Source: Curvularia clavata
Taxonomy: Eukaryota
Direction of reading: 5' to 3'
DNA length: 64,000 nucleotides
Assembly: GCA_023920165.1 (NCBI GenBank)
Contig: CP089274.1
Coordinates: forward strand, 2,542,001 to 2,606,000
Shown: positions 1 through 14,524 of the stretch, piece by piece
Position numbering within the stretch: the first letter of the stretch is position 1
Layout: every line of letters starts with the position of its first letter
Translations under genes and position numbers: made by a program
Notes under the pieces: generated by a model
Told to the model about the DNA's origin: nothing
The model's input: only the letters and a program-made list of their open reading frames with translations
Databases searched by the model: none

Positions 1-75
1 GCGTTAGCGGTGACGACAGACAACTACTCAACCATAGATCAGGGCAACGCCAGCAGCCTCAGTGGTGAGAGATAA
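1..75 (+). CDS. Possible 3' end of a gene entering from outside the window (…ALAVTTDNYSTIDQGNASSLSGER*)
   Basis: Frame 1 is open from base 1 to TAA at 73-75; too short to identify. Confidence 0.2.
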   Translation, partial: ALAVTTDNYSTIDQGNASSLSGER

Positions 76-1106
76 AAAACGCCCGATTAATCAGCACTGG
101 CCAACACAAACGAAAGGGGAAAAAATGTGTGCGGCTGCCAAACGCCTTGATGCGTCTCCCTGTTCATCAGATTGTGTAAGAGTGAATCCGGAGAAGCAAA
201 CGAAACCCGGGCCGCGAGCGGTGATTGGGAAAGCCAATTGCATCCATATTGCACAAAGTAGTTATCCGCCGTCTGTCTACACAATACAAAAGGCACTTGT
301 AAGTACGCGAAACAAGATGGACTCGAGACTGGTAGAAAGGCAGCGATTTCGCGTATCCTGGATGTAAAAAAGATGCCATTGTGCAGCGTTGCACGAATGA
401 ACACAAAGAGGGAGAAGATTGGTATTCAAGGGCGTAAAGTGTTGTATGTATGACCCATTGAGACGGCCCTTTCTTGGTGAGTTTGTATTGCACAGTCAGG
501 TAAATATGTAAGCCATTTTGGGTTAGCCAGGTCGAACCGTACTCCCAATCACTGCTACAAGCAGCCTTATCGTGGTGTTTGGGGCTTGCTAGCTTTGATA
601 GGCTAGGTGATCTGCGTCAATGCCGACCCATCGTTGTGGGACCTGTAGCACATCAATCTCGGCACTGTATCACGGCAGTAGTACCAGGAGGGATGAAACA
701 GGCGAATGGGTGCCAGAGTCGTAACACGACTGCCAGCACACTCCTGATGCGGTGCTCTATTGATGTTCCAGGCTGTGACCGGGTCACCGCCGCAGTGGTG
801 GAGACCCACTCTGGAGAGTGGCTGCTCACAAGTTGCTGCATGGGAAACGTCAGGGAACATCGCCAAGTCGGGGAGGGCCTGCTTGACAAAGACCGAGGGG
901 GCGGATGGCGGGATGATACGGAGAGCCAAAATTTCAAGTATGACGATTTTTCTTCATTGAACTTGCTGATAAAAAAACATACAGAACAAAACATCGTGCT
1001 TTCGGTTTGTATTGAGCGCAAGCTAGTTGGTTTCATCACTTTAAACACTAGGAGTCAGTCATTTATCGAAACAGGGAGAGGCAGGGTGATTTACCTCCGA
1101 ATTCCT

Positions 1107-1415
1107 TCAGCAATAATTTGGTGTCGCAGATCTTTTAGCAACCGTGAGTTCTTCGATTTCTGGGGCTGCCTCTTCTCTGGACAGGTGGTGTATAAGCTCT
1201 TTGAGATCTTCGAAATCTTGCCAAGATACATCTCCAATATCACCAAGTGATGGTTTACCGCCCTCCCAATGAACTCTGTCGTCGATAGGTGCCGGGTTTC
1301 TGGCTACTTCGTTAATATCGGGCACAGCTCGAGATACCGGTTGCGTAGACACAGGGGCGGCAGAGATGTTCAGTACGAAGCCAAGTAGCGGAAGTAGTGT
1401 GGTGAGGGCGTGCAT
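1107..1415 (-). CDS. Small secreted precursor peptide (102 aa) with a Kex2 site; candidate RiPP precursor
   Basis: Good Kozak context (tcaccATG). Hydrophobic signal peptide MHALTTLLPLLGFVLNISA|AP, acidic pro-segments, and KR followed by C-terminal SATPNYC. Same strand as, and 637 bp downstream of, a DUF3328 gene. Confidence 0.75.
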   Translation of the reverse strand: MHALTTLLPLLGFVLNISAAPVSTQPVSRAVPDINEVARNPAPIDDRVHWEGGKPSLGDIGDVSWQDFEDLKELIHHLSREEAAPEIEELTVAKRSATPNYC

Positions 1416-2052
1416 GGTGATAGTATGGTGTGCGTTGTTTTATTCGAATTTTTGCATTCTGCAAAATATTAGCATAGCCCGGATTTACGGAATATTCGTT
1501 ATTCGTACGGTGGAAGCCTGTAAAGAGAGATCGCAGTGTATGGAAGAGAAAATTCTGGCGCTGATGTGTCAGGATTTATGGCTTGAATGCTGCGCACCTC
1601 AGCTCAGCATGCCCGACCATTTGATTCTCGTATATCATCGTGTTCTCCCCAACATGCCAAACGTGCATAGTGGTCAGCCGCTCTTGAGGATAGCGGTCCT
1701 CGGAATCATAGTTGCACCGCGCTCGCTACCATTTCATTTGTATATCGATCATAATCTGAGGACGACCTCGGGCCGATATTGAATGGTGATGGGCGTGTCT
1801 GCCTCGTCCTTTTCGTGGTCAAGATGACTTGAGTGGCCATACCTTTCAGATCCATGGCATGAGGATATTAGTGGCTAATGACACACATGTTGTGTAACCA
1901 TACCGATATCGCATCGCATGCTCCTCGGAATATGGAGAGAGCTGAGAGCTCAATGTACTAGTACGTAGCATGAGAAAAAAAAATTAAAGCTCGAGTATGA
2001 TTGAATCAACAGAAAAGCCACACATTTTGCCCTCCCGTGTGTAACTCGCAAA

Positions 2053-3019
2053 TCAAAACACAATTACGTCGTCTGCATTTTCATTCTGCTCGTATGGATC
2101 TTTGTGTCCGTGGCGTTCAAAATAAGCCCGCTGGAAATCCAGATATGGTGATGAAGGCGGACAGAATGCAAAATTCTCAAGCGTATTAGTAGCCTCACGA
2201 TAATCGTCAAATTTGTAGCAGGCATGCTGATCAGGGCGCTTCGCCCAGGCTATCAGTTTGTCCCAGTCGCGGCATTCTCGAACCTGGAAACCACCAGTTT
2301 GATGGGAAAGTGGTGCCGGCATTGGAGTATCGTCTGCCGCACACATGACATCTTGTCGTAATCCATCCAGACAGTGGTAGATGTGCCGGAGATTGAACGC
2401 CTGGTCGCTGCCCTTGTGCTTCGAGACAATAGCTTTGCGAATAAGTTTCTTGAAAAGTTAGTTTCCGGATATTTGACACCAAACACCAGGCCTACCAGGC
2501 AATGTAAGTCATGTATGCCCTTCACATAGTACACACTGCGTTCCGTATCCCACGGAAATGGAGTGGAAGGAGGCAGACCAAGACTTCCTGCAAGTCTATC
2601 GTCAAGTGCAATTGCCATGGCATTAGTGTCGATATCATCCCATGCGGCCTCCATGTCACTGTCGCTTGCATTTGGATGCCAATACTTTGTCATGGCATAG
2701 TATGGCATGTTGGTATCGAAAGCTAGTCCGCCTTCAACAGCGTGAGCACATATTGACTATTTCATACTCGATACCTACTAAACTGGCTCTTGGTCGAGTG
2801 ATGCGAAATGCGGAGTCTCGCATTATCCATGACCAGCAAGATGTTTACTGAAAGTGAGAGGAGCAAAATCGACAAGCATGCAACAAAGCTGCGCGTGTTG
2901 GACGGGATAATTTCGGTGGTGTTGGAGTCCCATGATGTACCGTCCTTCTCTTCTGGTCCAGCCAAGATATTTTCTTCTTCTTCGCTACACACTGGCTGGT
3001 ATGCTGGAGATCCTGCCAT
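2053..3019 (-). CDS. UstYa-like / DUF3328 oxidase (3 exons; introns ~2778-2732 and ~2495-2449)
   Basis: Spliced product has an N-terminal TM helix (FVACLSILLLSLSVNILLV), then GLPPSTPFPWD, HDLHCL, HIYHCLDGLRQDVMCAADDTP and RECRDWDKL. Twin HxxHC motifs plus the CxxDxT and CRDW hallmarks of DUF3328. Confidence 0.92.
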
Positions 3020-3575
3020 CTTGGGATGGTTCAGAGAATGGATTTGAGCGCCAAATCAATGCAGCTTCACCGGACAGAGGTCCTGCAGGCTGTACAGTAA
3101 ATGTCCAAGTGACCAGTCGTACAGGCGTACGTCACGACTACTGCCGGGCGAGAATAACGCTTCAGCTGTCTCTCTCCGAAGGTCGGGTCGTGGATGAATT
3201 GCAACGCCATCTGTCTTTGTGGACGGTTACATCGCCGAGCAGGCGTTCTCCCGGGCGCTGTACCATCGAGGAAGGTCGTAAGCATCTCTAGACAATGATA
3301 GTGATACCAAAGCTCCCGGGCGGGTGGAATGCGAGGGGTTATCAGGGAATAGAGGGTGTGACTTGCTCGGCCTAGCCAAGACGCTAAAAGTGTCAACGGT
3401 ACCTTCCTTGTTGGGAGCCTTCACCCTAACACGGCAATCTACGATGTCCAATACTTGGAATATGCTATATCTCCGGTTCCGCTGTCCATGCGCCATGGCG
3501 GCAAGGTAGCGTCGTCGTCGTCTACTTTACCTGTCCGATGTCGCCCCAGCCTCATGTAGTCACCGACGTGCAACC

Positions 3576-4429
3576 ATGGGGCAGAGATACTTTGTCCGCG
3601 AGGCCAAAACAAAGCAAGAGTTGGACAGCATCTTGGAAGTAATCTGGGCAGCAAACTACACACCCTACGAACCTTTTATGCAGCTTGTGTTTCCTGTTCT
3701 CGGCTACACAGCTGCCCATCGCGAGGCTGCCATTAACGAATCCAAACAACGCTTCTGGGAAGAACACCAAACAGACCGATCCATTCACTGGTTCTACGCA
3801 TTCGACACAGTCACAAACAGAGCGGTTGGTTGCGCACAGTGGGTGATTTCGACCAAAAACCCATTCGCTGCAGGTACACCAGAGTTGACGGCACCATGGT
3901 GGCCCGAAGGCGAACGTCGGAGCTTTTGCGAATCGATACTGAATCAGGTGTACAAGCCCCGCGCAAGCTGGATGACACGGCCCCATTGTAGTAAGTGGAG
4001 CATTTATTTCTTGCTTCAAATGCGCTATTTCAGGAAACGACGGCAGTGAAGACGATCGGAATAATCCTGTATCAGCCACTGACATCAAAGACAGCACTCA
4101 ACTGGATGGCGGTAGATCCTGCTCACCGACTTCGTGGTATTGGCTGCTTGCTTATGGATGTGGGAATTGTGCGCGCCGACGATCTCGACCTGGAATGCTG
4201 GTTGGAAGCGTCGGCCATGGGAAAACCGCTGTATGAAAAGTTTGGTTTTCAACCGTTGTTGAAAATTGCCTTTGACACGGAGAAGCCCAATGCAAGCGAC
4301 GAGTGGAGAAGAAGTGCCCACGAGCTGACGCCTGCACCAATTTTTGCCATGTGGAGACCGACAAAGTCTTCTCGACAGGGAAGTCGGAGCGAGCTGCAGA
4401 TGCCGTGGACGCTAGGTACGCGAGCTTGA
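3576..4429 (+). CDS. GNAT-family N-acetyltransferase (intron 3991-4094)
   Basis: GTAAGT...CACTGAC...ACAG intron. Motif A MAVDPAHRLRGIGCLL and motif B WLEASAMGKPLYEKFGF; 249 aa when spliced. Confidence 0.9.
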
Positions 4430-4874
4430 AGAGCGCATGTGACACACCCGACTTGCGGTGGTCAGGTGCATGACAGACAAATGATGTATGGGAAATATCA
4501 GGTAATCGCCGCGACTGATGTGAAAACCAGGGCGGAAGCATGAATGGAAAGTACGGATCAGGTCATACATGAAGTGTGTATGGGCTGATATGGAAGAATC
4601 ATCTGGAGATGAGTACAGTTAGTTGGCTGCTTACCAACAGAAGGGAAATGGGAATCAACACTGAAAAGTAAGGTTTACAGTGACAGCACATGCAAACATG
4701 CATTTGAGGACGATGAGGCAATTGTCTAGCAATACCCAGCATTCGTGGCTCAGTTAGTTGCTAAACCTACATTCTCATCAGTCGGGTACATTTGAAATTT
4801 AAAGAAACTTTTTCCATTCGGACCCCATTGGTGATTATCTCACATGCTCTCTGTCGCCATCCAGGAAGTTTGCC

Positions 4875-5153
4875 CTAACCAGCGAGATTACAGCACTCGA
4901 CTGAGTAGGTGTGACTGCACCCAATACATACGTAACCCATCTCTTTTGTCTGCCATCGCCTTCGACACCCGCAGCACTCCCATATGCAGTCGGGGATTGG
5001 TTCCGCATCAGGACGGGGCGTGTGGCGTGATAGGGGAACCGGTGAGGTGAGCCTTTGCATACTGAAGGAGTGAAGATGGCCGTGCAGTGGTGTGCTGTGG
5101 AGACGGACTCGCAGTGAGTGATTGTGAGCATATGCGGTAGGCTTTGTCGACAT
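4875..5153 (-). CDS. Small Cys/His-rich protein, putative zinc-binding (WxCCxC...CxxCxH...CC)
   Basis: aaacacaATG Kozak context and a pyrimidine/A-rich 5' leader; C-terminus CIWECCGCRRRWQTKEMGYVCIGCSHTYSVECC. Confidence 0.5.
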   Translation of the reverse strand: MSTKPTAYAHNHSLRVRLHSTPLHGHLHSFSMQRLTSPVPLSRHTPRPDAEPIPDCIWECCGCRRRWQTKEMGYVCIGCSHTYSVECCNLAG

Positions 5154-5573
5154 TGTGTTTATGCAGCGGAGTGAACTAATTGAGTTTTGCTTGGATGTGG
5201 TTGGTAGAGGTTGAAAGTATCTGTGAGGTCGGGTACTGCAAGCGTGTCAACATGCCAACCGAAGTAGGCAGTAGCAAACGGGAAGTGCAAACGCGTCATG
5301 TCTGATTCCCTTCTCGATACCAGGGTACTTGAGATTACATGTGGCGAGCCGATGGGTGTTTGATTGTTCGTGTGCTTTGAAGATTTTCGTCTATTGCTCT
5401 CATTGTGCTAATTGCAGGCTCGGCCCTGCCACGGTAGTTTGTGTAACGCAGAAAACAACCAACCCTAAAGTCAAATCCCGAACTTAAAATCAGGGGCCAA
5501 GACGGGGAGAGTGGAAAGCGGCAACATGGGAAGGCGAACCTAGCGGGGTTCATGCACGAGGCTGCATTTGCAT

Positions 5574-6272
5574 TCAAAGCCATCCAGCCTTGAGTTTCTC
5601 AATTGCCTCATGCTCGGAAACCACGTCAGCCATCTTGGCGCCCATGTCGGTGATATTCACGTCGTGAACAGTGCGTGATCGATCACCACACGCCTCGCCA
5701 ACAACCTGGAGCCATGGTCAGCAACGTCCATAAAGAGCCGGATCAAGGCACACCATTGGCCGGAATCCTAGGCACATTGCATCCAGAGTGGTCGCGCGCA
5801 CACAGCCACTGGTACTGACACCGCAGATCACCAGAGTATCGATCTTGGAGAGGTGGAGCCTCGTGGCAAGGTCGGTCGCGAAGAAGGCAGAGGGATAGCG
5901 CTTGGAGATGACGGCTTCGCCAGCAGCAGGCTCCAGGCCGGGGAGCCAACTCTCGAGGCCAGTCTCTTTGCCCTGCTGAAAGACGTCGAGCAGTGGCACT
6001 TTGCAGAAAAACAATCCTGCATCCGCCATGTCCGGCTCCTTGTACTCTACCCGAGTCCAGATCAAGGGCACCTTTCCTTGGCGTGCGGCGTCGACGAGTC
6101 TCGCAATGGCTGCGGGCGCAGCCGCAGACGCAGGGTTTGCCCTCGTGTCAAGTGGGCTGTTTTCACTCCAGTAAGCTTTGCAGACGTCGACGAGTAGGAG
6201 GGCTGGTCTGCCACCCCATCCTATCTTTGCTGCAAAGCCGCTCCCGTGGACGCTCTGGGCTTGATCCGCCAT
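5574..6272 (-). CDS. Isochorismatase-family cysteine hydrolase (N-carbamoylsarcosine amidase/maleamate amidohydrolase-like; intron 5753-5706)
   Basis: ALLLVD, KRYPSAFF and GVSTSGCVRAT give the Asp-Lys-Cys triad; exon 2 reads VVGEACGDRS...AGWL*. Confidence 0.9.
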
Positions 6273-6801
6273 GCTGTCTCGTCGCCAGTCAGTCAGTTGG
6301 TCGTTGTGGGGTTGGTAGTAGGTCAGTCATGATCAAAGCGGCACGCGAGCACGGGCAAGTCTATAGCGTCGAGTCTACTACGGGTCGAGCCGTCTGCTAT
6401 CCAGCAACAGCCCGCCAGCGTCATAACCCGTCTCTCTCTGTGCCAGACGGCGGGCGTGTTATATCAGAACGACGCAATGCCGACCCAGCCAGGTTGGTCG
6501 GATCCTCGGACCAGTACGGAGGCGCCTTGGGTAGCTTCCGCCGCGTCGGCAGCATGCAGCCGCGCATAGTGCGGGCCATTGATGCGCCGACGCCCATACT
6601 ACCCGAGGTATCTTGTTGATTTCGCGCTGCCACATGGACAAACCCGCGGCTGCATGCCTTTGAGACTCTTGTGCTTTGATGCAATGGCCTACCGTGTCGC
6701 CATCCGGCCTGTCCGCGTAGTGTTGATTCCTGGAGCCATCCAATAACCGTCCCTGGGGCCCTTCATCTCTCTCACAGGAACCTCGACCCCGGCCTTGGCA
6801 T

Positions 6802-8877
6802 ATGATCGGACTTCCCCACACGAGCGCGACCTCCGCGAGGGCGCAACCGGAGACCGATGGCTCTCCTTCTCCTAAGTCTGCCAGCCTTGCTCCCACAATG
6901 GAGGCAAGAGAAGGGAGGATAGGCAACGCCTTTGCCTGCGAAAGATGTCGAAAACACAAGGTCCGCTGCGTGCCTTCGGATACTCCCAGCATCTGCCAAA
7001 GGTATGTTTGCCCGACTCCGCCGTTGTTCCTTACTCCACATTCACTGACACGTGCCTCCAGGTGCCAGAAGGCCAGAGTCGAATGTGTAGAACATGTCGC
7101 CCGCAGACGGCCAGCAAAGGCGCGCGCTGAGGGCCAGACTCCCAGCAAACTGCGCGACTTTGACAAGAAGCTCGACAAATTGTCTGCCATTGTTGCGACC
7201 ATGGCGCCCTCACCGGCGCAAACCACTTTACCCTCGGTAGTCACTATTCCCTCCCAACTTGCAGCCCTGGAAACGGCTCAGCAAGCCCCAACCCCAAAAC
7301 AAACGCTCACTCAAACCGTGCCTCTGCCGGTAACGCCTAGCTCTGCACATCTTCCTGGCCCCGGATCCCAATCGGAAAATTCTCTGCCAATCTGGGAATC
7401 TTTCAACGACACTCTTGCATGTCTCGGCCGACTGGACCCTGTCATCCGATCCATCAGCATGGTGCACATGCAGATGCTGCTCGACGCATATCGTGGCATG
7501 GTCGACTTCTTCCCGTTTGTCATCCTTCCCCGGGACTGCCGCTGCCAGGACCTGTTCCACACCCGCCCAATGTTGATGTTTGCTGTGTTGACGGTCGCTT
7601 CGTATGACTCGCCGCAGCTTCGACATACATTGAGCCAGGAATTTCGAAAAGTGGTCATGGTCAAGATCATGAAAGGCGAAAAGACCCTTGACCTGCTCCA
7701 GGGACTGCTGATCTTTATAGCGTGGCACCACCATTACATGGACGCTCAGGCCGTCTCAATCACCTTGCTTCTTCAGTTGTGCCTGGGCATCGCACATGAC
7801 CTCGGCCTCGACAACATATCCAGGGCCGCAAGGAGTCCTCTGCACAAGGACGATCCTCGGGACAAAGAAGCAAAACGCGCTTACCTGGGATGTTACTACC
7901 TGTCCTCCAACATTGGCTTAATGCAGCCGTTGAAGGCACGTTCCATGTCACACACGACTACACTTCGAAACTACGCCTCTGAACTAGCCTCTTCCTGGGA
8001 CAACAAGACAGATACAGTGCTTCCGATATTGATGGACGTCTGCCAATACATGGAGGACGTGGAGGAGACGTTCCGCAGCCAATCAGAACAGGCAATTGTT
8101 GTGCGCACGCAAGTCAATCGTCTAAGTGAAAAGTGGGAAAACATTCGCCTCGTATCTAAGCTACAGGCAAATGATTTCGGTAAGCATGCCCTGCTGCGGC
8201 TTGACACATGCAATACTGACAGTATATCAGCAACGCTACAATGGTTACAACTCGCCGCTCGCATACATCTCTATCGAATTGCCGCCTCCGTCGACCTTGT
8301 AGATCGCGATTCCACGCCCTGGGCTTCAGGTTTCCAACTGTCACTGCGGGTAACATATGTGCGATCAATCGAACAATTCCTCGAGAACAGCACCAAACTA
8401 TCCACCTCCCAGTTCGATTACGTCTCATTAATTGACTGGCTCAACCTCGTCAACACCATTACTAGCCTAAGCAAGCTGGCCCTCCACGCCTCGCACATTC
8501 CCGGCTGGGATCCCAGCGAGCTGCAGCTTACACGAACATTCGACTACTATCGAGACCAGATTTCCTCGCAGCTGCCGCGGCCACGGGATACGCAGAGCAA
8601 CCGTGAAGATGCGTTTGAGCGATTCCGTCGCATCACGTCCACTATGCGGATGGCGCTGCACGACGCACCCGGCAGGGGAAGCCCGAACGGTACTACTTTT
8701 GAGCTTTCGACCGGATCAGGAAGAACAGTATCGTTACTGCATAATCTTGCGCTGCCGAAGATCAACGGCGGCACTGCGAATGGATCAGAGAAGTTACCTA
8801 GTCTGCGAGATGTGAATCCTTCTTTCGACGTTACTAGCAATGACTTTCACTGGAAATTCTTGCTCGGTACCGTGTGA
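6802..8877 (+). CDS. Zn(II)2Cys6 fungal transcription factor (introns 7002-7061, 8180-8230; start may be 6898)
   Basis: After splicing, ACERCRKHKVRC-x7-CQRCQKARVEC binuclear cluster, followed by a fungal TF middle homology region (FFPFVI, LLQGLLIFIAW). Confidence 0.9.
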   Translation: MIGLPHTSATSARAQPETDGSPSPKSASLAPTMEAREGRIGNAFACERCRKHKVRCVPSDTPSICQRYVCPTPPLFLTPHSLTRASRCQKARVECVEHVARRRPAKARAEGQTPSKLRDFDKKLDKLSAIVATMAPSPAQTTLPSVVTIPSQLAALETAQQAPTPKQTLTQTVPLPVTPSSAHLPGPGSQSENSLPIWESFNDTLACLGRLDPVIRSISMVHMQMLLDAYRGMVDFFPFVILPRDCRCQDLFHTRPMLMFAVLTVASYDSPQLRHTLSQEFRKVVMVKIMKGEKTLDLLQGLLIFIAWHHHYMDAQAVSITLLLQLCLGIAHDLGLDNISRAARSPLHKDDPRDKEAKRAYLGCYYLSSNIGLMQPLKARSMSHTTTLRNYASELASSWDNKTDTVLPILMDVCQYMEDVEETFRSQSEQAIVVRTQVNRLSEKWENIRLVSKLQANDFGKHALLRLDTCNTDSISATLQWLQLAARIHLYRIAASVDLVDRDSTPWASGFQLSLRVTYVRSIEQFLENSTKLSTSQFDYVSLIDWLNLVNTITSLSKLALHASHIPGWDPSELQLTRTFDYYRDQISSQLPRPRDTQSNREDAFERFRRITSTMRMALHDAPGRGSPNGTTFELSTGSGRTVSLLHNLALPKINGGTANGSEKLPSLRDVNPSFDVTSNDFHWKFLLGTV

Positions 8878-9479
8878 AAGGATTCGACAAAGCAGACGCC
8901 CGTGTGTTCTCTGATCTCCATTCATGTTTTCCATGTTTACCCTTCAAAAAACATCTCCTTTGCTTTTTTTGAACCCCCGCCAAAAGCTTGTTTGGTATTC
9001 GTCGTTCCAGCATATGGGAGGGATAACGGGTTGGTGGGCTGCGTGCTGCTGACCCACCGGTTTCTAGACGATTTCATATAGCTTCCTGATTTTAGCCTTT
9101 CTCGACTCGCTCTCTCTCATACCCTTATATACCCAGCATTAGTTGTGTTTGAATCATACAGAAGTACTCAGCTCGCATTTCATTGATGTTTGCTTTGGAG
9201 ATGGGACTCAATGGGTCTGTCTGCCCTAATAAAAGTGTGAATTTGATGGCTTGGACTCTGTTTTCTCTCAGAGTATTTCTTTTTTTTTTTCTTGATAAGA
9301 ACTACAACAACAATAAGTTCGTGAAATTGACTCGGCGCCAATACCAAGACACGAAAGCTACGTAAATGCTAAATACAACAAGCTTCTACTCACTCATGTG
9401 TCACTTGGGTAACCCGTTTTCTAGACATCGCAAACAAAGGGGAAGAACTCACATCTCAACTTCGCATTGACATCCCACC

Positions 9480-10847: not shown

Positions 10848-12359
10848 TTAATGGGCCGAGCGAACAAGGGCTAACCTACCCTTTCGGTCTCTGTCAACGC
10901 GCATGACTTCTCTGCGGGGAGCGCGTTCAATAAACTCGTACTCGCGGTCGCCTTCGCGCTCGTACTTGAGGAGACGGCGTTCTTCCTCCAGGGAGCGGAT
11001 TTCCTCGCGGATGTCCCGCTCGGTTCGGCGCTCGTCACGGCGGACCAGTTGGCGGCCCTCGGGGAGGAAGGCAGTGGCTGGGCCGTGGATAGCGGCAGAG
11101 CGGTCAATCTCGACGAAGCGCTCGTGTTCATGAATGGATGGGGATGGAGGACGCTCTGAAGGTGCGTAGACGGTTGGCGCATGGTGAGATGGAGGCGGTT
11201 GGGCGTAAATCACTTGTGGAGGCTGGGCATACACCACTTGTGGTGGAGGTGGAGGCGGTGCGTGTACAGACGCTGGTGGAGGTGGAGGAGGCACCTCTAC
11301 AACTGGAGGTGGTGGGGGCGGCGCAACAGATGCTGGTGGTGCGACCGATGGTGCAACTGACGCTGGTGGTGGCGGAGCTTCTTCCCGGGTCTCCTCGTAG
11401 ACGTATGTGATTTTCTCTGCGAATTATCAGACAAGGCCTTTGGCCGGAATTAATGACTTACCCTCTTTGTATGACTCGCTGGTCTTGATGATTTCGTCAA
11501 TGTGCTCTTTCTCGAGCGCTCTGGTGACAATGATGAAGTCGTCCTATCACAGTCAGCGGCAGTCTCAATATGTAAGCGAACAACATACCTCTTCTTCATA
11601 TGGGTAGCCGAGATCAATAACGGCTTGCTTCTTCACAAGACGCTTCGGAAGTCTAGTCTTGCCCCTCTTGCCCCAAGTAGCCCGGGAAGGCTGGATTTCC
11701 TCGAAACTGGAAATGGAAGAGCTGCGTGTGGATCTTGCGGCTCGGCTCTTGCTTCGTCGCACCCTGCTCTTCTCGCGGTGAACCTCGACTTCGCGGTAGT
11801 CCTCGCGTTCCCGGCCCCTTCCGCTGCGCTCATCAAATCTGATCTCTTCGAAATCGTCGTCATCGTAGAGGCGGCGAGGCGACCGGCGGCGCTCGCGGAT
11901 AGGGAGGGGAATGGGGACATTGGCTGGTGGACGATACTCGTGGGTTTCGTATCTCTCAATTCTCTCCACGTCTCCATACCGGGGCATGGGTCGGCGATCG
12001 AAAGTGTCCAGCGAGGATTGGCGACGAATATATTGTGGGCGGGTTGGCTTAGGGGGACGGGCAACTTGGCGCCGCTCGTTGATATCAATGTCGATGTCGA
12101 TGTCTCTATCAATCACAGATCTGCGGCGGTAGGGAGCGAGCGCCTGGTTGGCGATCTCGGATGGTGTTGGCTCATGGAACAAGTCGCGACGCTGGGGGCG
12201 GCTGTAGCGCTCGTCTTCGTGGAAGCGCTCTTTCTCCATGACAACTGGACCCCGACGGGCGCGGTCTTCGTGGAAATCAACATCGCGATGGCCTCCAGGG
12301 AAGCGGTCGTGCTCTTGGAAGCGATAGTGTTCGTAATCATCAGGGCGGCCACGGACACT

Positions 12360-12393
<34 letters not shown>

Positions 12394-12497
12394 GCGCGTC
12401 GCATGCGCTCAAATCTGTCACGATCCCATCTTTCGCCGCCACGAGGGGGTTCCTCGAAGCGATCCAGATTGCCGGTCGAGGAGCGGTAGACGGACAT
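10848..12497 (-). CDS. Conserved fungal Arg/Glu/Pro-rich hypothetical protein (exons 12497-11589, 11543-11462, 11416-10848)
   Basis: Canonical GT-AG introns join one frame. Core GKTRLPKRLVKKQAVIDLGYPYEEE|DDFIIVTRALEKEHIDEII, then a proline-rich region and a DRKGRLALVRS C-terminus. Confidence 0.8.
12360..12392. repeat. (GCC/GGC)n microsatellite encoding poly-Gly
   Basis: Run of ccgccgccg... within the minus-strand CDS. Confidence 0.9.
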
Positions 12498-13579
12498 GGT
12501 TGGGGGGGGGAAAAGGGGTGGTTTGATGCTTCGCAGCCGATGACGTCGTCTGGGGGGTTTGGTGTAGTGCGGGGCTGCGGGCTTCTATGTCTGTCCGGAT
12601 GAAAGGACGGCTACAAGCAACAAGAGTGTATACTCGACAGCCAAGGGCAGTGACGCGGAGGAGTGAGGGAGGGGCACAGGAAGTGGGCTAGCAGGAATAT
12701 AAGGGCGTCAGGTCCCAGGCGGTCCGGAGAATGGGATGCGGTGCGTGGGCGCAACCAGATTTAGGTGCAGGATTCGCGACAGGCTTCGTCATCGGCGCCC
12801 GCCCGCGATGCCCTCTTGGTGCGTTCTGGCCTGGGCGCTGAACTGGGCCTTGACTCGGGGAGAACGGCCCCCCTGAAGCGCTTCAATTTCTTACTTGTCA
12901 CTGGCTCGTCTTGGGAGCAGTTTCATGTGAGCTGGAGACAATTCGGGCGCTATCGTTGGGCACGCCGGCGGTGTCGCGGGCATGGATGCATCTGGCTGCC
13001 GCATCATGAGGTCAAGCAGAGACGGGCAGCTTGTCTTGTCACCCAAAGGGCATGGATTGTGCCCAGGCTATCCTTACGGACGCCGTCTCGACAGGCTCAG
13101 CATTGGATGGGAGGCATGTCGGCCGGTTGTGCTTGTCGGCTGTCAGTGACGTCACGCTGACCAACTTGGAACGCTTGCCGGCATGCACCTGCACGTGGGC
13201 CCGCGGCGCAGTCATCCGCCTAGCTCGTCCTCAGCCACAGCTCAACACCACTCGAATATCGCCGGCCCACGCGGTTGGGCTGTCAGGGCCGCCTGGTACC
13301 GATGCTTGTCACAACTGCCCGTCACAATTGCTACTTATCCAGGGCACATATGCTGATATGTCCACTGCCGACACTCAACCAGCATGGGCACCAACCATAT
13401 GCAACAATCGGACCATAGCCGTTGTCAAAGCCGTGTCCTCAACATGTCGAAACACAGCCTCGTCGTCCCTTGATCGGTCTCATCATCAAAAGCCGTGTCC
13501 GTAGTCTATGTCATCCTGTCTACTGTACAGTACTCGTACAAGTCGTCTAGCCGTGCTACTCGTAATTCCATCCCCCAAA

Positions 13580-14128
13580 TCATTTCGTTCCCACAGCCTC
13601 CTGTATCTTCTTGGTCACATACTCTACATCAAATGGCCGGCCCTTGATCCCTCCCACAACCTTGCCCATGACACTGCCAAAGCTCCTCTTGCCCTCCTCT
13701 AGCCCCTCAACGACGCTCTTGACCAGCGAGTCGACTTCGCTCTCGCTAACAGTGGGTATCTCGTCAGCGTAGGCCTTGAGCACGTCCAGGTGCTGCTGTT
13801 CCTTTTCGACCAAATCTTCTCTCTTTGCGTTCCGGAACTCCTCAATCGACGCTGAACAAGCCTTGATCTGCTTCTGGATCAGCGAGTACAGGGCTCCGTC
13901 AGTGGTGATGGGCTTGGTCGTCTTGGAGGCATTGATAATCTCGGCTTGCAGTCCGCGAATCGTGTTCAAAGCAGGCTTGTTCTTGGACCGCATGGCGGTT
14001 TTGAGGTCAGACTGCAGGCGAGGGAGCACAATGTTCTCCGACGTCGAGGTGGACGCATAGCGAACGCATCCCAAGCGAGCAGGGGCAAGAAGCTGCCTTT
14101 GCAGTAATGTGGCACGGAAGAGTGACAT
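13580..14128 (-). CDS. AIM41: Mitochondrial GatB/YqeY-domain protein (Aim41)
   Basis: Presequence-like MSLFRATLLQRQLL; YqeY signature LQSDLKTAMRSKNK...IEEFRNAKREDLVEKE...FGSVMGKV. Confidence 0.85.
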   Translation of the reverse strand: MSLFRATLLQRQLLAPARLGCVRYASTSTSENIVLPRLQSDLKTAMRSKNKPALNTIRGLQAEIINASKTTKPITTDGALYSLIQKQIKACSASIEEFRNAKREDLVEKEQQHLDVLKAYADEIPTVSESEVDSLVKSVVEGLEEGKRSFGSVMGKVVGGIKGRPFDVEYVTKKIQEAVGTK

Positions 14129-14524
14129 GGCTGGCGAGTGAGAGCTTTCAACAAAGCCAGTATCCGGATCAAGGGTGGTGGGTTGAACAATGGGATGGGA
14201 CACTTGGGCCGAAAAAAGTTTGGGGTGAACAAAAACGCGCTCAGACGCGCGCTACCCAAAGATCCCGGTCTTCTGCCAAGCCCAACCTTTTGTTGTCCTT
14301 CGTCACTTTTGCAGCTTGTGCCTGAGCCCAGCGTCGCGAACCGCTCCAATCCTCTATCTTGGTATTCACATTTGCGCGTCTCGCTGCCATTTCAGCTTCC
14401 GACTAGTAGCGCGCAGCTAATGTGCACGTCGTATCGCTGGCGCGTCCCCCCAACCTCCATTTGAAGCTCCGACCCGCGACCAGCGCAGCGCAGCCTCTCA
14501 ACCTCACACCTCCACAAGCCCATC

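Follow-up and report, generated by a model that had tools for sequence, protein, structure and literature searches.

A conserved gene pair of a UstYa/DUF3328 oxidase and a small secreted repeat pre-pro-peptide in the Pleosporales

The locus

The gene pair described here lies in a stretch of 64,000 nucleotides of Curvularia clavata (contig CP089274.1, positions 2,542,001 to 2,606,000), which we call the window and in whose own numbering all positions are given. A gene for a UstYa/DUF3328 oxidase is followed on the same strand by a small open reading frame (ORF) that encodes a predicted secreted pre-pro-peptide, P0001. UstYa/DUF3328 genes are abundant in fungal genomes and few of them have known substrates. 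We found the small ORF and the UstYa gene to be a conserved, co-oriented and expressed pair that recurs across families of the Pleosporales. The pair and its transcript comprise the following features.

2053-3019, minus strand: UstYa/DUF3328 gene; exons 3019-2779, 2731-2496 and 2448-2053; product of 290 amino acids (aa)
2778-2732 and 2495-2449, minus strand: UstYa introns of 47 nt each; both are exact joints in an RNA contig
2499-2513, minus strand: HxxHC motif 1 (HDLHC); H154, H157 and C158 invariant in 37 orthologues
2371-2385, minus strand: HxxHC motif 2 (HIYHC); H181, H184 and C185 invariant in 37 orthologues
1416-2052, minus strand: transcribed spacer of 637 nt from UstYa to the small ORF; conserved non-coding blocks in the alignment; bridged by RNA contigs of runs X1 and X9
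1459-1508, minus strand: leader intron between the UstYa stop and the small-ORF ATG; joint 1458->1509 in X1 and X9
1107-1415, minus strand: coding sequence of the small ORF; predicted secreted pre-pro-peptide of 102 aa (P0001); stop codon 1107-1109
1359-1415, minus strand: predicted signal peptide, residues 1-19 (MHALTTLLPLLGFVLNISA); hydrophobic h-region, then small-residue c-region
1278-1331, minus strand: unit 1, residues 29-46 (RAVPDINEVARNPAPIDD); the constrained 18-residue element of the family
1110-1136, minus strand: C-terminal KR-SATPNYC, residues 94-102; a truncated relic of repeat unit 2
1039-1094, minus strand: intron in the 3' untranslated region (UTR), beginning 12 nt past the small-ORF stop; joint 1038->1095 with CT..AC ends in X1

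A first-pass annotation of this locus had placed a 102-residue signal-peptide protein 637 bp downstream of, and co-oriented with, an intact DUF3328 gene carrying two HxxHC motifs. These coordinates were confirmed, with 637 bp from the UstYa stop to the small-ORF ATG and both genes on the minus strand, and the oxidase gene is intact as a three-exon model with RNA-confirmed introns and the motifs HDLHC and HIYHC. The Pfam check suggested at the time likewise came out in favour of the assignment. Single UstYa exons match PF11807 at 20 and 18.2 bits, under the cut-off of 25; the full-length orthologue P0036 (84% identical) reaches 89.6 bits, and PF11807 is carried by all 48 orthologues that were retained from 82 candidates at E <= 1e-10. 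Over exon 3, the identity of these orthologues ranges from 84% (Bipolaris victoriae) down to 49% (Lophiotrema). A hydrophobic stretch at residues 45-64, together with a helix at 42-72 in the AlphaFold2 (AF2) model of an orthologue (mean pLDDT 53.7), constitutes a predicted N-terminal membrane anchor.

The 60 C-terminal residues of the UstYa orthologues (about 230-290) lie outside the Pfam match, yet they are highly conserved in alignment A3, with C236, D241, Y242, C255, P256, G273 and H274 invariant. To judge from this alignment, they may be an extension specific to the orthogroup, and it is this stretch that is missing from the fused public gene models described below. Profile searches of the PDB with alignments A3 (UstYa orthologues) and A2 returned no match at E <= 0.1.

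Transcription of the gene pair

RNA contigs from four runs of four studies were aligned to window positions 1-9000. Run X11 is registered as a root metatranscriptome; the label of X1, X9 and X10 reads "RNA?", and X10 is from another organism by its label. We regard X1, X9 and X10 as cDNA because their contigs skip canonical introns. The contigs show presence only and gaps in coverage carry no evidence, which applies to the UstYa 5' exons, not covered in X9 and X11.

The small ORF is covered in all four runs. A contig of 3027 nt from X1 spans 841-4067 on the minus strand and has joints at 1039-1094, at 1459-1508 and at both UstYa introns, and a contig of 957 nt from X9 joins 1144-1458 to 1509-2150. 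UstYa exon 3 and the small ORF therefore stand on one spliced contig in two studies (X1 and X9). The donor, the branch site and the CAG acceptor of the leader intron keep their positions in four Alternaria-like loci (L002, L003, L006 and L008 of the metagenome scan described below), and the 3' UTR intron reads GTAAAT...CTGAC...AAG. An in-frame TAA at 1442-1440 precedes the small-ORF ATG.

The spliced leader also holds an upstream ORF of five codons (ATG...TAA) at 1457-1440 on the minus strand, in frame with the small ORF and just past the acceptor of the 1459-1508 intron. At its other end, the main X1 contig is continuous from UstYa to 4067, across the divergent spacer and exon 1 of a neighbouring GNAT acetyltransferase gene, and a low-depth X1 contig shows a minus-strand intron GTGAGC...CAG at 4067-4126, antisense to GNAT. 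These contigs suggest that either the UstYa leader is long or the GNAT gene is overlain by an antisense transcript.

The small protein and the selection on it

The C-terminal end of P0001 is ...EELTVAKRSATPNYC, its tail reading ...VAKRSATPNYC in the translation of the ORF. The N-terminus forms a helix at residues 3-18 in the AF2 model, and this signal-like segment is conserved across the aligned family. Besides the signal helix, the model as a whole (pTM 0.28) has one short and one amphipathic helix and a hairpin, and no compact fold.

A word-indexed search found 18 of 21 candidates homologous to P0001 at E <= 0.1, among them hypothetical proteins annotated in Bipolaris maydis, B. oryzae and Alternaria ventricosa. 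Searching 1.84 billion representatives with a profile gave 27 matches at E <= 0.001, most of which align at profile positions 1-49 only, that is, over the signal peptide and unit 1; the named relatives at this level belong to Clathrospora, Neocucurbitaria, Plenodomus, Cucurbitaria and a Phaeosphaeriaceae species. Every named relative of the small ORF is a member of the Pleosporales. The best ESM Atlas score for the small protein, 0.83, is under the 0.9 level and is treated as a lead only.

Aligning 19 sequences leaves R29, V31, P32, A38-D45, W50, G53 and P55 as invariant columns, and the C-terminus is unalignable. The same division appears at the codon level, where the window was compared with six metagenome loci (L004, L007 and L009 were excluded as encoding the same proteins as L003, L006 and L008). 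Codons 29-45 show 145 synonymous-only and 12 amino-acid-changing differences in 357 codon pairs, against 19 and 127, respectively, in 174 codon pairs of codons 81-102. By these counts it is the protein that is under selection, in its N-terminal part, and the small ORF is a real gene with protein-level purifying selection.

Several Alternaria-like copies (the small ORFs of L005-L009) stop early with ...HLLG(G/S)SHSA* at 86 aa, directly after the amphipathic helix. Such copies have no second unit; either the sequence past the helix is dispensable there or an unrecognised intron is present.

The repeat unit and the C-terminal tail

The repeat structure was compared in 45 members, namely the window protein, the 18 homologues, 25 new profile matches and the small-ORF part of the fused gene model P0083; P0020-P0035 and P0109-P0111 were excluded as near-identical cluster members. 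Common to all 45 is an 18-residue unit, RxxP…RNPxP(I/V)D, in which R1, P4, R11, P13 and P15 are invariant and V9 (43 members), N12 (43), I16 (40) and D17 (42) are nearly so. Its consensus is R-(A/S)-V-P-x-(I/L)-x-x-V-(I/A)-R-N-P-x-P-(I/V)-D. Later RxxP units, 30 altogether, follow downstream in 22 of the 45 members. Four tandem 18-aa units are found in P0088, the Cucurbitaria berberidis protein has four tandem 18-residue units of which every one ends in G-R, and distant members have two to five Arg-delimited units. With a hidden Markov model (HMM) of the 30 later units, every one of the 45 unit-1 segments scores between 10.0 and 23.5 bits (window 17.2), against a maximum of 9.8 bits in 900 shuffles, a test that is somewhat inflated by the unit-picking regular expressions, which fix the R and P positions. 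The units are bounded by single Arg, with A, G, T, D, S, P or E as the P2 residue; KR occurs in three of the 45 members and RR in seven.

By these comparisons the small-ORF family is a repeat family, and the window copy retains a single intact unit and the decayed stump of a second. At the position of the window tail, aligned relatives have DR or ER and then S-x-P-D-(F/L)-H-H-x-A-K-N-P-V-E-I-R-P. The wider alignment pairs REEAAPEIEELTVAKR-SATPNYC of the window with a second unit minus its N-P-V-D part, and the window tail corresponds to the start of the Alternaria unit R-S-x-P-D-(F/L)-H-H.... This tail is absent or different in Bipolaris and Alternaria and is the fastest-evolving part of the protein, and neither the Tyr nor the Cys of SATPNYC is conserved among the family members. 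We interpret KR-SATPNYC from its alignment as a decayed relic of the second unit and not as a conserved core.

The first-pass description of the precursor as non-repetitive holds for the window copy, which has no perfect repeats, but this is the derived state of a repeat family. The internal segment after the dipeptides NP-AP, which had been offered as one of two possible substrates, does touch the conserved motif, but the constrained element is unit 1.

Recurrence of the pair

A scan of metagenome contigs gave nine small-ORF loci, L001-L009, which sample about four to five independent lineages, L003/L004, L006/L007 and L008/L009 being near-duplicates. UstYa lies upstream on the same strand in seven of the nine, 650-690 bases away; its three exons are present, L007 showing the last 41 residues at the contig edge. 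The two loci that gave no UstYa call have a short upstream flank (327 bases in L001, 499 in L005). Public databases extend this sample. Four gene models, from three Alternaria species and Neocucurbitaria cava, join a UstYa orthologue to the small ORF, and the two genes have neighbouring accessions or locus tags in seven species: Clathrospora elynae, Phaeosphaeriaceae sp. PMI808, Alternaria ventricosa, Plenodomus biglobosus, Bipolaris oryzae, B. maydis and Decorospora gaudefroyi, such succession indicating neighbourhood in annotation order, not distance. In each lineage that could be checked, a UstYa orthologue adjoins the small ORF.

The first-pass annotation had made its proposal depend on transcription of the small ORF and on its linkage to DUF3328 orthologues in other genomes, and both are observed, with RNA in four of four runs and adjacency in seven of nine loci. 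Of the genes whose synteny around these orthologues it had proposed to test, the small ORF is linked, but its KR is not kept, and the GNAT gene is syntenic in Alternaria-like loci, where the whole block is.

Interpretation

We favour the reading that the two genes are a module conserved across the Pleosporales, in which the UstYa oxidase has the small secreted pre-pro-peptide as its likely substrate, and put its probability at roughly 0.45. It builds on observation for the gene structures, the expression, the continuity of RNA between both genes, their conserved adjacency and the way in which constraint is distributed. Published knowledge of the enzyme family is the basis for the rest, namely how enzyme and substrate are related, the chemistry, the sites of cleavage and any product, which are offered tentatively, at somewhat less than even odds.

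The precursor would enter the endoplasmic reticulum via its signal peptide, where a membrane-anchored, lumen-facing UstYa would oxidatively modify residues in or beside N-P-(x-P)-I-D. Such a modification would be independent of Tyr, for example a dehydrogenation or hydroxylation like that by UstYa homologues at the P-I-D end of phomopsin. An Arg-specific protease could then free the peptide, and classical Kex2 cutting directed at KR is not implied. The DUF3328 enzymes are reported to perform cyclisation, chlorination, hydroxylation and transacylation, and PhomYc, PhomYd and PhomYe lead to dehydro-Ile, dehydro-Asp and dehydro-Pro in phomopsin (PMC10880069), of which the core is YVIPID (PMC7099791). 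The enrichment of DUF3328 genes is highest at the position adjoining precursor genes (PMC7329392).

Several observations weigh against this reading. Conserved dibasic sites were sought among the 45 members and none was found. The mature part (after residue 20) is free of Tyr in 34 of the 45 and has no conserved Tyr, which occurs in two of the 45 unit-1 segments and in none of the 30 later units; the characterised dikaritin cyclisations all use Tyr (PMC7329392). The resemblance to phomopsin extends over the three residues P-I-D and may be due to chance. The RNA contigs cannot prove a single transcript, as read-through mRNA and overlapping transcripts are both conceivable. We also have to consider that the adjacency may be partly inherited synteny because the relatives are all from one order, and in the Pleosporaceae a larger block, from a regulator gene to a rhodopsin-domain gene, is kept together. 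An exon 3 identity of 49-84% over 48 Pleosporales matches looks more like that of a core gene than of a specialised-metabolite gene. The locus has a single UstYa, with no tyrosinase, methyltransferase or protease nearby, and stands in a housekeeping context.

In a rival reading, the two genes are coupled in some way other than as enzyme and substrate. The product of the small ORF would then be a secreted small protein or pro-peptide, for instance a signal, an effector or another protein's partner. Its gene would stay beside UstYa through shared transcription or regulation (by overlapping or read-through transcripts or by conserved elements of the spacer), and UstYa would act on a different substrate. 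A continuous RNA contig over both genes and conserved non-coding blocks in the spacer fit this explanation, as do the lack of a conserved Tyr or KR, the activity of DUF3328 enzymes on non-ribosomal peptidyl products as well (PMC10880069), and the synteny of the whole neighbourhood, in which the rhodopsin-domain gene is co-oriented in six of six loci with at least 3 kb of downstream flank. Against it, adjacency and orientation are kept from the Pleosporaceae to the Leptosphaeriaceae, Phaeosphaeriaceae and Cucurbitariaceae at about 31-44% identity of the small protein, both products are predicted to be in the secretory pathway, and the repeat-unit architecture, with the low pTM of the AF2 model, is that of a processed precursor and not of a folded protein. 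We regard coupling of this other kind as rather unlikely, if a serious competitor. A far smaller chance is left to the proposal of the first-pass annotation, a single-core, dikaritin-like system in which Kex2 releases SATPNYC, UstYa cyclises it at Tyr/Cys and the GNAT adds an N-acyl group. The window copy does have KR94-95, Tyr101 and Cys102, and the GNAT gene is divergently adjacent and syntenic in three of three loci with at least 5 kb of upstream flank. Conservation has nevertheless largely refuted it: KR is rare in the family, codons 81-102 differ mostly by amino-acid-changing substitutions, and the alignment places the tail at the beginning of a decayed repeat unit. A Tyr cross-link of the dikaritin kind has no basis, neither Tyr nor Cys being conserved, and the GNAT has no signal peptide, whereas the precursor and UstYa are secretory. 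The role of the GNAT as an N-acylating tailoring enzyme is unsupported on a second count, since it is syntenic only in close relatives, together with the whole block.

The least probable alternative, which we consider next to negligible, is that the small ORF belongs as an exon to a fused gene, together either with UstYa or with the rhodopsin-domain gene downstream. Public models do join it to UstYa (P0025, P0026, P0032 and P0083) or to the rhodopsin-domain gene (P0112 and P0113, the Curvularia clavata and Decorospora models), and the fused Curvularia clavata model shares 99% identity with the window protein across 90% of its length. The fused models are unsupported here because the intron 1039-1094 follows the stop codon and the in-frame TAA precedes the ATG; the RNA contigs have no joints at the small ORF other than this one and 1459-1508. 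About 40 family members are moreover stand-alone gene calls of 65-148 aa, and what the fused models lose is either UstYa's conserved C-terminal third or, in the rhodopsin-domain protein, the first helices. The small gene is thus systematically mis-annotated in Pleosporales genomes as a fusion to either neighbour, in the six models named, and the present locus exposes this recurrent error.

If the enzyme-substrate reading of the pair holds, a further-reaching version of it may be considered, which we think improbable as a whole. The pair would represent a new, order-wide class of UstYa-dependent peptides with a Tyr-less N-P-(x-P)-I-D core, release at single Arg, and dehydro or hydroxy residues instead of a Tyr ether ring. 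The peptide would serve the Pleosporales as a conserved extracellular signal, and its sensor might be the PTH11-like rhodopsin-domain membrane protein, whose gene comes immediately downstream on the same strand.

To our knowledge, the known UstYa substrates are all Tyr-containing repeat precursors flanked by Kex2 sites, and mining tools are built on that pattern. The pair would extend the rules for UstYa substrates by single-Arg delimiters, 18-residue units and the absence of Tyr. With one enzyme and one precursor, it would be an unusually clean test case, in an order with many major crop pathogens and endophytes, and it is expressed in culture and in a root metatranscriptome. That it is conserved across the order amid housekeeping genes hints at a peptide with a physiological or signalling function and not at a strain-specific toxin.

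Comparison with known systems

The dikaritins (ustiloxin with UstA/UstYa/UstYb, phomopsin with PhomA/PhomYa-e, asperipin-2a and victorin) resemble the window locus in having a signal-peptide precursor gene beside a UstYa/DUF3328 gene whose product has two HxxHC motifs and an N-terminal anchor (a predicted one in the window locus), and their tandem repeat units recur in the wider family of the window peptide. For phomopsin the likeness extends to the core, as the P-I-D of the window family recalls the C-terminal half of YVIPID, a core in which UstYa homologues act on Pro, Ile and Asp by dehydrogenation (PMC7099791, PMC10880069). By contrast, the units of the window family are bounded by single Arg and not by KR/RR Kex2 sites, have no conserved Tyr, and measure 18 residues instead of the 4-6 of dikaritin cores, one intact unit being present in the window. 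The window locus further differs in its single UstYa, with no tyrosinase, methyltransferase or transporter, and in its order-wide, not patchy, occurrence amid housekeeping genes.

The epichloecyclin gig cluster (gigA precursor, gigB DUF3328, gigC SET methyltransferase and kexB) is similarly minimal, with one DUF3328 gene and a small secreted repeat precursor that has no Pfam domain, and a signalling role has been discussed for it as well. Genes like gigA with a single repeat are on record in a relative (PMC10540207). The window locus, however, has no dedicated kexin or SET gene, and epichloecyclin cores contain Tyr and Lys (e.g., INFKIPYT) and have no sequence similarity to the window unit.

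Kex2-processed repeat proteins (KEPs; Umemura 2020, PMC7329392) are likewise secreted repeat pro-proteins, with a DUF3328 gene within 15 genes in 22% of cases and mostly at the next position, whereas the window family has no repeated Kex2 motif, by which KEPs are defined. EUC44348, the homologue from B. oryzae, does not appear in the KEP tables of PMC7329392 as far as these were available, though strain ATCC 44560 was among those surveyed and yielded 12 KEPs. Mining for repeats and Kex2 sites does miss the family, as the first-pass annotation had expected of repeat-based mining.

Precursors of alpha-factor-type pheromones (MF_alpha; Ccg-4/PpgA) share with the window family the signal peptide, the pro-region and repeated units rich in X-Pro/X-Ala, and an ESM Atlas feature match to an MF_alpha cluster at 0.81 is a lead only. 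They differ from the window family in their KR sites, and mating-factor genes generally have no DUF3328 gene in their company (PMC7329392). The reading of the small ORF as an alpha-pheromone precursor was set aside on two grounds, the missing KR sites and the absence of what we take to be the W/C-containing motif of these pheromones.

Lacking both the Kex2-flanked repeats and the Tyr core, the window family is not filed as a member of the dikaritins or KEPs, even though it may work like one. Within the coverage of the literature search, which left aside about 1.7 million PMC articles and the subscription literature, no paper was found on the unit-1 motif, the orthologue locus tags or a bicistronic DUF3328 transcript. 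Three cluster families of RiPPs, peptides made on the ribosome and modified after translation, are mentioned from the Pleosporaceae in PMC12278603, the main text of which contains neither DUF3328 nor UstYa, and they are not linkable to the window locus.

Neighbouring genes

Three further genes lie beyond UstYa.

3576-4429, plus strand: GNAT acetyltransferase gene; exons 3576-3990 and 4095-4429; no signal peptide; a neighbour of the pair
5703-6272, minus strand: isochorismatase-family gene; intron at about 5704-5751 (joint in X11, X1 and X9); PF00857 at E = 7.6e-25
6802-8877, plus strand: gene of a Zn2Cys6-type regulator, by its Cys pattern; introns at about 7000-7059 and 8179-8229 (GT..AG joints)

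The UstYa ATG (3019) and the GNAT ATG (3576) are separated by a divergent spacer of 556 bp, in line with the shared promoter region of about 555 bp described for them in the first-pass annotation. GNAT exon 2 matches PF13508 at 31.6 bits (cut-off 27) and PF00583 at 21.2 (cut-off 20.7); the intron 3991-4094 was placed by homology, and no joint for it was seen in the RNA contigs. The GNAT loci counted above as syntenic are L003, L004 and L009, which are Alternaria-like and syntenic over the whole block. Among loci with enough upstream flank, the order of the GNAT and isochorismatase genes is kept in three of three and that of the regulator in two of two (L003 and L004). In the six loci with the downstream flank given above, the gene after the small ORF is a co-oriented Fung_rhodopsin gene. 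This is ordinary synteny of the block because the loci are all from relatives at the level of the Pleosporaceae. The GNAT, isochorismatase and Zn2Cys6 genes are regarded as neighbours of the system and not as members of it.

Two unnamed conserved ORFs and a YqeY gene (10851-14251 in the window, 17373-20299 in L004) lie beyond the regulator in one and beyond the transporter in the other. By this gene order, the block from the regulator to the peptide gene, with the rhodopsin-domain gene and the transporter, has undergone inversion as one piece between the lineages of the window and L004. Elsewhere the window encodes Nup133, Arv1, an HRQ1-type helicase, Mob1, HIT, an M28 peptidase and similar housekeeping proteins. 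A Pfam scan of 38 long window ORFs detected no non-ribosomal peptide synthetase, polyketide synthase, tyrosinase or methyltransferase; a wider biosynthetic cluster in the window was rejected, these ORFs belonging to housekeeping families.

Two in-frame introns, one of 60 and one of 51 nt, are contained in the regulator's long ORF; they are spliced in RNA, and the first splits the Cys-rich DNA-binding motif. Pfam gave no family for this ORF, and the intron within the Cys motif may explain it. Relative to the window, X1, X9 and X10 all have one more G after position 5279, in untranslated sequence that separates the GNAT and isochorismatase genes; this reflects either a strain difference or a one-base assembly error. 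In X10, a spliced contig of 791 nt covers the 5' part of the regulator (6773-7452) at a depth of about 883, with 25 differing letters and a loose end at 6773; the regulator orthologue of a close relative appears to be very highly represented in that run.

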